NCBI RefSeq assembly: GCF_046105845.1 | Contig: NZ_CP151004.1 | Strand: one strand, 5' to 3' | Source: Escherichia coli | GTDB lineage: Bacteria > Pseudomonadota > Gammaproteobacteria > Enterobacterales > Enterobacteriaceae | Length of the DNA stretch: 64,000 nucleotides | Shown: piece after piece, positions 21,940 through 45,226 of the stretch | How the letters are laid out: every line of letters starts with the position of its first letter | How positions within the stretch are numbered: position 1 is the first letter of the stretch | Notes under the pieces: generated by a model | The model's database searches: none | The model's input: only the letters and a program-made list of their open reading frames with translations | What the model was told of the DNA's origin: nothing | Position numbers and translations under genes: made by a program

Positions 21940-23241
21940 TTACTGCTTTAACGCCGCATACACCTGATCAACCACCCAACCATAAGTTGCAATCGGTAGC
22001 TGACCGCTTTCGAACATATTGGGATTTTTTTGTGGATCGGCAACTGGCGAATGTGGCTTGTTGCTTAACATCACAATCGCCATATGATTCACCGGATCGA
22101 TAACGGTCACCGTCCCGGTCCAGCCAGTGTGACCGTAGGTTTGCGGGCTTGCCAGCGTGCCAAACGTCGGTGTCATGGTGGCATTACCATTCACGCGCCA
22201 GCCGAGGCCAAAAGTGGCATCTTCCTTAGAGCTGGTGGTGAACATCTTCACCGTTTCTGCATTGAACAGCTGCACATCACCATAGCCACCGCCGTTCAGC
22301 ATCGTTTGCATTAACACCGCAATATCGCCGGTATTGGAAAACAAACCTGCGTGCCCGGAAACGCCGCCCATCGAATAAAAGGCTTTTTCATCGTGCACCT
22401 GACCCCAGAGAGTGGAGGTGCGGATATTCGGGAAATGGATCACGCCATCGCGGGTATTGCCGTTGAGTTCCGTGGCGGCAATTTGTTGCGGTTTAAAGCC
22501 TTTCAGTAGCGGATTAAACACCGTATGCGTCAGGCCGAGCGGGCGATAAATCGACTCTTCAACATAGCGGTCAAGTGGCTGACCGGTAACCGACTCGACG
22601 ATAAATCCAAGCAGCATATAATCGACATCGCTGTAGATATGCTTGCTGCCGGGCTGATACTCCAGCGGCGTGCGCTTGATCATCTCCAGCGTCTGGCCTT
22701 TATCCTGGGAATATAACGCGCCCGCGACCGCTTTATTCGGATATTGTGGGTCCGCCGGGAAACCGCCGCTGTGATGCAGCAGGTCAGAAATCCGCAGCGT
22801 GTTTTTGCCTTTGATGGTGTCATTTGGACTATCGGCAAATCCCGGAATATATTTCGCAATCCGATCGTCAGGATGCAGCTTGCCTTCGCTCATTAGCTTT
22901 TGCAGAGCAAAGTTAGTGGCGTACATCTTGGTATTGGAAGCCAGGTCATACAGCGTCCCGGTGGTGGCTTTGACAGGCTGTTCCATCAATACGCTGCCAT
23001 CGTACTTTTTCGCCGCTCCCCAGGCTTTGCGATACACAATCTGATTATCTTTTATAATCAGCAGGTTTACGCCGGGATAACCGGCGTCCACTTGCTGGCT
23101 AATCCAGCGATCCATCTGGTTAAGCCGTTCGACGTTGAACCCTGCTTTCTCTGGCGAACTTTCTGTCAGTACAGGGTATTTTGCGGCGCTGACGCTACAA
23201 CTAACAGCCAGCAGAGAAAGATAGAGCATTGTCCGTTTCAT
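21940..23241 (-). CDS. yfeW: Penicillin-binding protein 4B (beta-lactamase-fold DD-peptidase) YfeW
   Basis: 433 aa MKRTMLYLSLLAVSCSVSAA.. with signal peptide; ORF-track N-terminal extension rejected. Confidence 0.92.
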   Translation of the reverse strand: MKRTMLYLSLLAVSCSVSAAKYPVLTESSPEKAGFNVERLNQMDRWISQQVDAGYPGVNLLIIKDNQIVYRKAWGAAKKYDGSVLMEQPVKATTGTLYDLASNTKMYATNFALQKLMSEGKLHPDDRIAKYIPGFADSPNDTIKGKNTLRISDLLHHSGGFPADPQYPNKAVAGALYSQDKGQTLEMIKRTPLEYQPGSKHIYSDVDYMLLGFIVESVTGQPLDRYVEESIYRPLGLTHTVFNPLLKGFKPQQIAATELNGNTRDGVIHFPNIRTSTLWGQVHDEKAFYSMGGVSGHAGLFSNTGDIAVLMQTMLNGGGYGDVQLFNAETVKMFTTSSKEDATFGLGWRVNGNATMTPTFGTLASPQTYGHTGWTGTVTVIDPVNHMAIVMLSNKPHSPVADPQKNPNMFESGQLPIATYGWVVDQVYAALKQ

Positions 23242-23245
23242 GATA

Positions 23246-24670
<1,425 letters not shown>

Positions 24671-43316: not shown

Positions 43317-43405
43317 AAAGACTCCAGATGATCGATGGTTCTATTGTGCTTCTTCCAGTTTGAGAAATAAAATTGATTTATTGCATCCATTCATGAAGAA
43401 AACAG

Positions 43406-44332
43406 ATGAATTATTCTTTAAAACAATTAAAGGTTTTCGTCACAGTAGCGCAGGAGAAAAGTTTTAGTCGTGCAGGAGAGCGTATCGGCCTGAGCCAGTC
43501 GGCAGTGAGTCACAGTGTGAAGGAGCTGGAAAATCATACTGGTGTTCGCCTGCTGGACAGAACCACGCGTGAAGTGGTGCTTACAGATGCAGGGCAGCAG
43601 TTGGCTTTGCGTCTTGAGCGACTGCTGGATGAACTTAACAGCACGTTGCGCGATACCGGGCGTATGGGGCAACAACTGAGCGGAAAAGTTCGGGTCGCTG
43701 CCAGCCAGACCATTTCCGCGCATCTTATTCCGCAATGCATTGCTGAAAGCCATCGCCGCTATCCAGATATTCAGTTTGTCCTGCACGATCGTCCGCAGCA
43801 GTGGGTGATGGAAAGTATTCGCCAGGGAGATGTCGATTTTGGCATCGTCATCGATCCAGGCCCAGTGAGCGATCTGCAATGTGAAGCGATTCTTTCCGAG
43901 CCTTTCTTCTTGCTTTGCCATCGCGATAGCGCTTTGGCCGAGGAAGATTATGTACCCTGGCAGGCATTACAGGGAGCGAAATTGGTGTTGCAGGATTACG
44001 CGTCAGGCAGCCGACCGCTGATTGACGCAGCTCTGGCGCGCAACGGTATTCAGGCGAATATTGTGCAGGAGATTGGTCATCCGGCGACGCTGTTCCCGAT
44101 GGTAGCCGCAGGCATCGGCATCAGTATTCTTCCCGCACTGGCGCTACCATTGCCTGAAGGTAGCCCACTGGTGATAAAGCGCATTACACCGGTGGTAGAA
44201 CGCCAGTTGATGCTGGTGCGCAGGAAGAACCGTTCACTTTCCACCGCCGCACAAGCGTTATGGGACGTGGTACGAGACCAGGGCCATGCGCTAATGGCTG
44301 GGCGGGAAGGGGATCCGTTGTATCAGATATAG
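43406..44332 (+). CDS. yfeR: LysR-type transcriptional regulator YfeR
   Basis: 308 aa [42 protein letters not shown].. (N-terminal HTH); divergent from yfeH. Confidence 0.92.
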
Positions 44333-44664
44333 ATATCGATCTGAGTCGTTTTTTCAACAGGATTTGGAAGGGATGCATTCAGAGACAAACGCTGCTCTTT
44401 CTCCTGCGCTTTTTCTGCCTGCTGTCTTTGCAACTGCGCCAGTTGTGTTTCCAGTAGGGTGATTTGCTGCTGAATCAATTCGGCCTGTTTTTGCTTGTCT
44501 TCAGCACTGCCGCTAGTGTCTGCAATCTCTTTAATTTGTTGAGTGAGTTTGATGATTTGCTGACTTATCCGCGCAATTTGTGAAGCAACATCGCTACCTT
44601 CTGATGCCCTGTTACTACTCTGTGTTTGTATGGAAGGAATTGAAGTTGGAGAGATAGTGGCCAT
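44323..44664 (-). CDS. Hypothetical coiled-coil protein, FlxA-like (flagellar-regulon-type protein of unknown function)
   Basis: 113-aa ORF with GAGG SD 8 nt upstream of ATG; S/T-rich N-terminus then Q/L/K/E-rich predicted coiled coil ([57 protein letters not shown]), C-terminus ..QIDIYI; own sigma-28-like promoter; family assignment from memory, not searched. Confidence 0.6.
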
Positions 44665-44692
44665 TGTTCAGTCCTCGTCACTGTACGAGGTA

Positions 44693-44719
44693 ATATCGGC
44701 AGAAGAACAAGGAACTTGA
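44693..44719 (-). promoter_or_regulatory. Putative sigma-28 (FliA)-dependent promoter of the FlxA-like ORF
   Basis: Minus-strand read TCAAGTTC-N11-GCCGATAT vs FliA consensus TAAAGTTT-N11-GCCGATAA; 28 nt upstream of the ORF start. Confidence 0.5.
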
Positions 44720-44752
44720 GAAGAAAAATCAATCTTACAAACCGCATATAGC

Positions 44753-44779
44753 AAAAAAGCGCCTTTAGGGCGCCTTTTT
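44753..44779 (-). terminator. Rho-independent terminator of the valU-valX-valY-lysV tRNA operon
   Basis: A-tract, gcgcc..ggcgc hairpin, T-tract immediately 3' of lysV. Confidence 0.75.
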
Positions 44780-44783
44780 ACAT

Positions 44784-44859
44784 TGGTGGGTCGTGCAGGA
44801 TTCGAACCTGCGACCAATTGATTAAAAGTCAACTGCTCTACCAACTGAGCTAACGACCC
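44784..44859 (-). tRNA. lysV: tRNA-Lys (anticodon UUU)
   Basis: Reverse complement reads GGGTCGTTAGCTCAGTTGGTAGAGCAGTTGACTTTTAATCAATTGGTCGCAGGTTCGAATCCTGCACGACCCACCA; 76 nt with encoded CCA. Confidence 0.97.
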
Positions 44860-44863
44860 GAAG

Positions 44864-44939
44864 TGGTGGGTGATGACGGGATCGAACCGCCGACCCCCTC
44901 CTTGTAAGGGAGGTGCTCTCCCAGCTGAGCTAATCACCC
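44864..44939 (-). tRNA. valY: tRNA-Val (anticodon UAC)
   Basis: Reverse complement reads GGGTGATTAGCTCAGCTGGGAGAGCACCTCCCTTACAAGGAGGGGGTCGGCGGTTCGATCCCGTCATCACCCACCA; 4-nt spacer to lysV. Confidence 0.97.
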
Positions 44940-44985
44940 ACTTCGGTACTTCACATTTTTACAAGAAATTTAGCTGGTGAGAAAG

Positions 44986-45061
44986 TGGTGGGTGATGACG
45001 GGATCGAACCGCCGACCCCCTCCTTGTAAGGGAGGTGCTCTCCCAGCTGAGCTAATCACCC
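44986..45061 (-). tRNA. valX: tRNA-Val (anticodon UAC)
   Basis: Identical 76-nt tRNA-Val copy. Confidence 0.97.
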
Positions 45062-45105
45062 ACTTCTCAATTTCTTGCTACACGGCGGAGACTACATAAA
45101 GTAGT

Positions 45106-45181
45106 TGGTGGGTGATGACGGGATCGAACCGCCGACCCCCTCCTTGTAAGGGAGGTGCTCTCCCAGCTGAGCTAATCACCC
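45106..45181 (-). tRNA. valU: tRNA-Val (anticodon UAC)
   Basis: Identical 76-nt tRNA-Val copy; first gene of the tRNA operon. Confidence 0.97.
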
Positions 45182-45198: not shown

Positions 45199-45226
45199 AT
45201 TATAGGGAGAGTTCAAAATGAGTCAA
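45199..45226 (-). promoter_or_regulatory. Sigma-70 promoter of the valU tRNA operon (stringent-type)
   Basis: Minus-strand read TTGACT-N16-TATAAT followed by GC-rich discriminator gcgactcc, about 18 nt upstream of valU. Confidence 0.7.

Follow-up and report, generated by a model that had tools for sequence, protein, structure and literature searches.

A FlxA family gene beside the lysV tRNA operon

Does a small, AT-rich gene lying next to a tRNA operon of Escherichia coli belong to the flagellar regulon, and what might its product do there? We addressed this question for an open reading frame (ORF) of 113 amino acids (aa) in a stretch of 64,000 nucleotides (nt) from E. coli contig NZ_CP151004.1 (assembly GCF_046105845.1), hereafter called the window. 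A first-pass annotation of the sequence had placed the ORF on the minus strand just past the lysV terminator and described it as a FlxA-like gene with a sigma-28 (FliA)-type promoter. The ORF list contains it there, at 44323..44664 with an ATG start. Judged by its homologies, it is a real and already annotated relative of E. coli FlxA. With a known family and a sigma-28 promoter as that family predicts, the earlier description is correct but largely ordinary. New here are quantitative and comparative support for the promoter, a conserved synteny that corrects the reading of the locus as an island, a dimorphism of E. coli between flxA-like and xap arrangements, and leads on protein export and on insulation by RNA fold-back.

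Family membership was checked by hidden Markov model and BLASTP searches, and it held. The Pfam FlxA model (PF14282) matched residues 15-92 (independent E-value 7.1e-15, 55.4 bits), and comparison with K-12 FlxA gave 45% identity across 74 aa (E=3e-13). PHROG 11044, the FlxA family of the Qin prophage, also matched the protein (1.4e-9). The identical locus of E. coli 042 bears the RefSeq Prokaryotic Genome Annotation Pipeline name 'FlxA-like family protein' (WP_000201400.1), and ECs_3279 in the O157:H7 Sakai record is named 'flxA'. The protein has the structural hallmarks of the family: a length within about 105-125 aa, low sequence complexity at the N-terminus, a core of two coiled-coil helices and [IV]-D-x-Y-[IV] at the C-terminus. 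The Ser/Thr (S/T)-rich N-terminus, Q/L/E/K-rich core and ...IDIYI end noted in the first pass are all in the translation, and the Shine-Dalgarno (SD) sequence GAGG is seen by direct reading 8 nt ahead of the ATG (44673..44676, minus strand).

A HMMER scan of 1.84 billion representatives recovered 89 clusters of relatives, mostly of 105-125 aa, and all 57 relatives aligned with the FlxA-like protein matched PF14282. Structural neighbours in AFDB50 were likewise all FlxA or FlxA-like proteins without assigned function. Many came from Enterobacterales (Citrobacter koseri, Enterobacter, Cronobacter, Kosakonia, Yersinia, Serratia and Brenneria) and from beta- and gammaproteobacteria, with some from Firmicutes. 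NCBIfam held no specific model and returned coiled-coil noise only, far under its cut-offs, and a word-indexed protein search for relatives gave few matches and no usable taxonomic census. One AFDB50 entry, W2CGH6 ('Protein flxA (fragment)', Tannerella sp. oral taxon BU063), shares 94% identity with the FlxA-like protein, and contamination of that single-cell assembly by E. coli is the most likely cause.

FlxA has been known since the 1990s as a FliA-dependent gene of unknown function and has been studied only as a K-12 prophage gene; K-12 flxA was still listed as uncharacterised in 2024. K-12 FlxA (b1566, Qin prophage) is the PF14282 prototype, and it has in common with the lysV-adjacent protein the family, the size (110 versus 113 aa) and the layout of S/T-rich N-terminus, two helices and ...IDIY[IV] end. 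As here, a sigma-28 promoter stands directly before a short leader in K-12 flxA, with 24 nt from the -10 element to the ATG versus 28 nt in the window. The two genes also differ in several respects. The identity of only 45% is limited to the 74-aa core, the -35 element reads TAAAG in K-12 flxA and TCAAG in the FlxA-like gene, and the K-12 leader lacks the anti-SD complementarity found here. Moreover, K-12 flxA is prophage-borne, whereas the FlxA-like gene sits on the chromosome at a position that several enterobacterial families share. For K-12 flxA, FliA dependence is a measured property; for the FlxA-like gene it is predicted from promoter sequence.

A conserved sigma-28-type promoter precedes the gene

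The element proposed as a sigma-28 promoter, TCAAGTTC-N11-GCCGATAT (44693-44719, minus strand), consists of the -35 element TCAAGTTC at 44712..44719 and, after an 11-nt spacer, the -10 element GCCGATAT at 44693..44700. It departs from the consensus TAAAGTTT-N11-GCCGATAA at 3 of 16 positions and is the sole match with three or fewer mismatches in the window. Such matches are expected 0.43 times per window, and at least one appeared in 39 of 100 shuffles. Because 0.43 matches are expected by chance, the mismatch count alone is weak evidence, and we therefore built a position weight matrix from 52 FliA chromatin immunoprecipitation sequencing (ChIP-seq) sites (Fitzgerald et al., PMC4183435 Table 2). 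The site was ranked against leave-one-out scores of the 52 real FliA sites. It scored 19.4 bits, the highest value on either strand of the window, and ranked 9 of 53, above fliC, fliAZY, flgKL, trg, aer and ycgR. The second-best matrix match in the window, GAAATATATTCCGGGATTTGCCGATAGT (17.7 bits; 22828-22855, minus strand), lies inside yfeW/pbp4b on the sense strand; K-12 ChIP-seq has many FliA sites within genes.

The promoter is also conserved in position. In each of the 15 syntenic orthologues among the matches listed, TCAAG...GCCGATA (13.6-21.1 bits) was found 27-31 nt upstream of the ATG, compared with 28 nt from the -10 element in the window, and in 14 of them it was the best match of the whole locus. 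Both elements were kept while the 11-nt spacers and the surrounding sequence had diverged. The motif recurred before distant relatives, including those of Pantoea (18.7 bits) and Serratia (23.2 bits) and the loci L025, L026 and L029 (the last with a 12-nt spacer). It was found as well before two unlinked family members in unrelated contexts (L032 and L035; 17.6 and 19.9 bits), while a few loci of high GC or from Negativicutes had a weak motif or none. Only three sites in the window reached 13.6 bits (128 kb, both strands), so repeated chance placement of the motif is not credible. The significance of the site thus comes from where and on which strand it lies, how it scores against the matrix and how well it is conserved.

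A match in one further relative was not counted as promoter support. In L041 (Xylophilus sp., ~2935-2975), a sigma-28-like -10 element falls within a terminator-like hairpin (AAGGGCTTGCCG...CGGCAAGCCCTT, then T6) of the upstream argG, and it may be a coincidence.

The same evidence bears on whether the match in the window is itself coincidental, with the gene expressed by read-through of the tRNA operon or from an unrecognised promoter. The chance expectation given above leaves some room for this, as does the co-directional position of the gene 119 nt downstream of a very strong operon. Yet the motif sits on the right strand and at the right distance in every listed orthologue despite diverged spacers and recurs before unlinked members, an intrinsic terminator lies between operon and gene, and read-through RNA is predicted to have its SD sequestered. 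We consider coincidence highly improbable. A sigma-70 scan found no sigma-70-like promoter between the lysV terminator and the ORF.

Data on known FliA targets are consistent with a functional site. In a fliA deletion, K-12 flxA expression was 2 instead of 280, and FliA was seen to occupy the flxA promoter (PMC4183435); a separate fliA deletion array showed a 28-fold drop (PMC1935009). The K-12 modABC promoter contains a 28-mer nearly identical to that of the FlxA-like gene (TCAACTTCCTGCTTTTCCTGCCGATATT for mod versus TCAAGTTCCTTGTTCTTCTGCCGATATT). FliA binds it in vivo (FAT 32), and deletion of fliA lowered mod expression from 182 to 61 (PMC4183435). The modABC promoter drives an unrelated operon, and the likeness indicates that this variant can work as a FliA site; it is not proof for the FlxA-like copy.

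As far as sequence comparison goes, the promoter claim of the first pass was borne out, by a top-scoring matrix match at a conserved position, and a well-conserved sigma-28 promoter of the FlxA-like gene is supported. The gene is very probably a position-conserved chromosomal member of the FlxA family that sigma-28 polymerase would transcribe as a class 3 flagellar gene with a leader of ~20 nt. A chromosomal FlxA member with its own sigma-28 promoter, conserved in position across Enterobacterales, is what gives the locus its interest.

The gene is an old resident of the slot with two states in E. coli

In the E. coli DNA of the window, the genes run in the order ligA-ypeB-yfeH-yfeR-[ORF]-lysV-valY-valX-valU-gltX. 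A genome scan yielded at least 15 syntenic orthologues with 54-88% protein identity, from Pseudocitrobacter, Kluyvera, Pluralibacter, Enterobacter sp. and other Enterobacteriaceae. All 15 of the orthologous loci listed share the order gltX / tRNA-Val copies and tRNA-Lys / flxA-like / yfeR (convergent) / yfeH / ypeB. The Pantoea locus (L038) has this order too, the Serratia locus (L040) reads flxA-like / yfeR / yfeH / ypeB / ligA without tRNAs, and L025 reads gltX / tRNAs / flxA-like / ypeB / ligA. Counting Kluyvera, Pseudocitrobacter, Pluralibacter, Pantoea and Serratia, at least five enterobacterial genera besides Escherichia thus have a flxA-like gene in this slot. Since the order recurs across genera, we regard the gene as an old resident of this slot in Enterobacterales and not as part of an island.

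This result divides the earlier suggestion of horizontal acquisition next to a tRNA gene into two parts. The compositional part stood: the by-eye estimate of 43-45% GC agreed with the measured 44.2%, with 41% GC at third codon positions (GC3), against 50-54% GC and 54-61% GC3 in ligA, ypeB, yfeH, yfeR and gltX. The tRNA-linked island did not, given the conserved slot and the lack of an integrase or repeat. No integrase, mobility or phage genes accompany the FlxA-like gene, which is alone on the segment that differs between E. coli strains, and no repeat of the tRNA-Lys 3' end flanks it.

An origin as mobile or phage cargo that entered recently at the lysV tRNA gene is accordingly very unlikely. 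In favour of such an origin are the low GC and GC3, the patchy distribution in E. coli described below, the location of the prototype flxA in the Qin prophage together with the PHROG match, and a yfeR/flxA-like segment unusually close to that of Pseudocitrobacter. Besides the missing integration hallmarks, it is opposed by the finding that Kluyvera, Pseudocitrobacter, Pluralibacter, Pantoea and Serratia (the last without tRNAs) have the gene in this slot too, again with its end overlapping that of the convergent yfeR. In addition, the junction is continuous with the Pseudocitrobacter arrangement, and the extra duplication of a tRNA end is on the K-12 xap side.

The horizontal signal may have another source. 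The yfeR/flxA-like segment (43317-44783) is 83-94% identical in nucleotide sequence to Pseudocitrobacter (L004/L005), as against 80-81% for ligA, ypeB and yfeH. Low GC3 (41-42%) is also common to the E. coli and Pseudocitrobacter alleles, against 57-64% in Kluyvera, Pluralibacter and related orthologues. The closer segment and the shared low GC3 therefore suggest allele exchange with a Pseudocitrobacter-like lineage at a conserved, homologous locus.

A survey of the yfeR-lysV interval, as the first pass had proposed, found the ORF conserved there across the syntenic loci and unevenly distributed within E. coli. Of 5426 complete E. coli genomes, 1316 (24%) carry the flxA-like gene and 4089 carry xapR. 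Carriers include 042, O157:H7, O145, O121 and BL21(DE3)/B. The exchanged unit is 397 bp long (44333..44729), comprises promoter and gene, and is replaced in K-12-type E. coli by the 4.4-kb xapR-xapB-xapA-yfeN cluster; the -35 element starts 10 nt inside its boundary. In K-12 (L002 3530-7930), the cluster runs from ~24 nt past the lysV terminator exactly to the yfeR stop codon. It occupies the same interval as the FlxA-like gene but is an unrelated xanthosine-utilisation cluster with a porin gene. Because the junction sequence is continuous with the Pseudocitrobacter arrangement, the comparison suggests an ancestral flxA-like state, with the xap state derived from it. This split between carriers (O157:H7, BL21(DE3)/B, 042) and strains with the xanthosine cluster offers cleaner genetic material for finding a function.

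Two further features of this interval were observed. Strain HH97 has a third arrangement, a 160-bp remnant with 84% identity. In K-12 (L002 3325-3535), the final ~20 nt of lysV and the terminator occur twice in tandem, with ~110 nt of an RtT-like element between the copies; the duplication sits on the xap side of the junction, the window is single-copy, and E. coli H1 annotates an 'RtT sRNA' here.

The promoter region contains sequence complementary to the Shine-Dalgarno

The -10 octamer GCCGATAA spans positions -15 to -8 of the sigma-28 open complex (PMC12784957). Position +1 would therefore lie eight nt after the octamer, and we predict the sigma-28 start of the FlxA-like gene, from this geometry, at 44684..44686 (minus strand), with a leader of ~20-22 nt. 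The same region (44673..44690, minus strand) contains an inverted repeat of CCTCGT (44685-44690) and ACGAGG (44673-44678), the latter including the SD. Folding gave -8.6 kcal/mol (z=-2.7). The 5' arm covers -5 to +1 and would therefore be largely missing from the predicted sigma-28 transcript.

Comparable pairing was seen in orthologous leaders with different arm sequences. The 5' and 3' arms are CCTTAT and ATAAGG in Kluyvera, AACTCC-A-TTT and AAA-GGAGTT in L015, and AACTCTTTTT and GAAAGGAGTT in L017; in L015 and L017 the 5' arm begins within the -10 element. Because arm positions shift between lineages, we used shuffle z-scores and a duplex test, and not column-wise covariation. The minimum-free-energy fold paired the SD region with the segment following the -10 element in 12 of 16 tRNA-linked orthologues, with z-scores down to -4.2. 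Across 13 lineages, the duplex between this segment and the cognate SD region averaged -6.33 kcal/mol, compared with -4.30 for non-cognate pairs (permutation p=1e-4), a sign that the two segments co-vary, and against a shuffled 5' segment it gave z=-6.9. The orthologous leaders concerned are those of L004-L018, L025 and L026, of which L009 and L025 do not have the hairpin. Nothing comparable was found in five K-12 sigma-28 promoters (flgM, flgK, fliC, fliD and flxA) or in unlinked family members.

This arrangement could insulate the gene from its neighbour. RNA reading through from the tRNA operon would contain the complementary sequence, fold back and hide the ribosome-binding site (RBS), whereas sigma-28 transcripts would start inside the anti-SD sequence and leave the SD free. 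We offer this tentatively, at somewhat less than even odds. There is a precedent in the transposase genes of IS10 and IS50, in which only externally initiated RNAs form an RBS-occluding hairpin (fold-back inhibition). In both cases RBS-complementary sequence is positioned upstream of the gene's own start, the same geometry as at the predicted start of the FlxA-like gene. The settings differ, as IS10 and IS50 encode transposases and the FlxA-like gene is a predicted member of the host's flagellar regulon that follows a tRNA operon. Its hairpin is also short (6-10 bp) and is not present in every lineage.

Protein anatomy and a possible late flagellar role

An AlphaFold2 model built with the 57-sequence alignment contained helices at residues 22-49 and 54-98 with a short turn between them (block-mean predicted local distance difference test (pLDDT) 78-94), and pLDDT was below 50 for residues 1-20 and 96-113. 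In this model the protein is an antiparallel two-helix hairpin with both ends disordered. The family N-terminus starts M-[TSA]-[TS]-I. Over the first 20 residues, the family averages 38% S/T, 6% charged residues and 3% Leu, as against 13%, 20% and 13% in window ORFs of at least 200 aa, and none of these 52 ORFs reached the family composition. At the other end, the tail motif G-[VI]-N-R-P-x(6-8)-[IV]-[DN]-x-Y-[IV] is conserved in family alignments. The FlxA-like protein has no hydrophobic signal peptide. Sequence-profile and Foldseek searches of the PDB returned only designed or generic coiled coils and helical hairpins, with fold E-values all above 0.1, and gave no structural lead to a function.

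In the flagellar hierarchy, FlgM leaves the cell after completion of the hook-basal body, which frees FliA for class 3 genes. The sigma-28 (FliA) polymerase would transcribe the FlxA-like gene from TCAAGTTC-N11-GCCGATAT, and expression would be expected to rise only after hook-basal-body completion and FlgM exit, as for K-12 flxA. The FlxA-like protein may be a dispensable accessory of the late flagellar programme. The original 1997 study reportedly found that K-12 flxA is not needed for motility.

The specific role that we favour is that of an export substrate. The flagellar type III export apparatus would recognise the N-terminus of the FlxA-like protein and export it as it does FlgM. In a 0.22-um cell-free filtrate, 5 peptides served to quantify K-12 FlxA, and the flagellar-regulon proteins listed there were FlgK, FliD, FliC, FlxA, FlgL, FlgM, FlgE and CheY (PMC6391000). 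Six of the proteins listed with FlxA are known export substrates; CheY is cytoplasmic. The disordered, S/T-rich, charge- and Leu-poor N-terminus resembles those of FlgD, FliD and FlgM, and like FlgM-type late substrates the protein is small and predicted to be made with class 3 genes, although late substrates show no sequence similarity to it. At 42 °C, where flagellar export collapses and class 3 transcription falls, K-12 FlxA protein and mRNA changed oppositely (PMC6551532). Depending on the direction of these changes, intracellular build-up of an unexported substrate could give such an opposite pattern. By analogy with these substrates, handling of FlxA proteins by the export apparatus through their N-terminus is possible, though well short of an even chance. 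If it were true, the cellular level of FlxA would report export activity.

As the main alternative, the gene may be under sigma-28 control and encode a cytoplasmic protein that is not itself exported, a small adaptor or regulator of coiled-coil type that tunes late flagellar or motility behaviour, for example through contact with an export-gate, motor or signalling component. We regard this as a serious contender that falls somewhat short of an even chance. The helical-hairpin model resembles many cytoplasmic coiled-coil adaptors, and the type III stalk protein CdsO is among its weak Foldseek matches (E ~0.9). The K-12 class 3 genes ycgR, yhjH/pdeH and cheY encode cytoplasmic modulators, and CheY itself accompanied FlxA in the filtrate. 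A cytoplasmic adaptor would nevertheless leave unexplained the uncharged, S/T-rich, disordered N-terminus found throughout the family and the fact that the other filtrate companions of FlxA, CheY aside, are all known export substrates.

Weighing the combined reading

Taken together, these leads would make the FlxA family, including the lysV-linked copy, a group of unrecognised small late flagellar export substrates, made under sigma-28 control and expelled like FlgM, with the lysV-linked gene shielded from tRNA-operon read-through by an anti-SD sequence embedded in its promoter. We put the probability of this combined reading at roughly one in four. If neither export nor fold-back holds, what is left is an ordinary, correctly annotated accessory gene.

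Several observations weigh against our account of the gene as a whole. Its regulatory premise, FliA dependence, is drawn from the promoter sequence, as published FliA regulon data do not extend to the FlxA-like gene, which K-12 lacks; a literature search for ECs3279 or 'FlxA-like' returned nothing. On the RNA side, the hairpin is weak (-5 to -9 kcal/mol), non-significant in about half of the lineages and absent from L009, L025, L029 and Pantoea. On the protein side, the filtrate that contained K-12 FlxA also contained cytoplasmic CheY, S/T-rich disorder is not specific to type III signals, and we know of no chaperone or docking motif for the FlxA family. Finally, the gene looks dispensable within E. 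coli, being absent from ~75% of complete genomes. The dN/dS ratio (nonsynonymous to synonymous substitution rates) between 042-type and O157-type E. coli alleles was 0.63, and the IDIYI motif, otherwise invariant, has D110G in the O157 allele. Frameshifted or truncated versions also occur among database proteins (P0001, P0002 and P0007).

The last group of points raises the possibility that the gene is a decaying, functionless remnant in E. coli, kept where xap-yfeN has not replaced it, with its promoter a relic. The limited number of carriers, the allele comparison and the frameshifted or truncated forms speak for this, as does yfeR next to the O157 allele, which is annotated as a pseudogene with an internal stop. 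In total, 9 nonsynonymous and 4 synonymous changes separate the O157/B-type allele from that of the window (L021; L024 6113-7371), and selection looks relaxed within E. coli at the sequence level. Over longer distances, however, dN/dS was 0.14 against Pseudocitrobacter faecalis, a value indicating that the gene is under long-term purifying selection between genera, and several enterobacterial families have kept both gene and promoter. No family-conserved residue is lost from the window allele, which is intact. Despite 13 coding differences, the region from the -35 element to the ATG (promoter, SD and leader) is identical in 042-type and O157-type alleles. We therefore consider a remnant unlikely.

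Among the frameshifted and truncated forms, which may be true pseudogenes or assembly errors, P0001 and P0002 (159 aa, 34 member sequences in total) have a frameshift at or near the A6 run at 44349-44354 (minus strand GAAAAAACG). They continue into yfeR antisense and lose the conserved IDIYI end; P0007 (95 aa) stops earlier.

Neighbouring features and other observations

The FlxA-like ORF lies 119 nt 3' of the tRNA-Lys gene in the same direction, and its final 10 nt overlap the 3' end of the convergent yfeR (43406..44332, plus strand), which encodes a LysR-family regulator and is its convergent neighbour in every syntenic locus. Upstream and co-directional is the valU-valX-valY-lysV operon (44784..45181, minus strand) of three tRNA-Val(UAC) genes and one tRNA-Lys(UUU) gene, the latter at 44784-44859 (minus strand). 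The sigma-70 promoter of the operon is at 45199-45226, and its intrinsic terminator, a GC stem followed by T6 (44753..44773, minus strand), ends 33 nt upstream of the -35 element of the FlxA-like gene. An Rfam scan of the leader and intergenic region found tRNAs only, and PADLOC gave no defence-system match for the FlxA-like gene.

Elsewhere in the window, the yfeW-murP stretch (22000-23500) reached at best 98.4% identity among the 5426 complete E. coli genomes, while the flxA-like segment has 100% matches. By this comparison, the window strain is locally divergent or recombinant at yfeW-murP.

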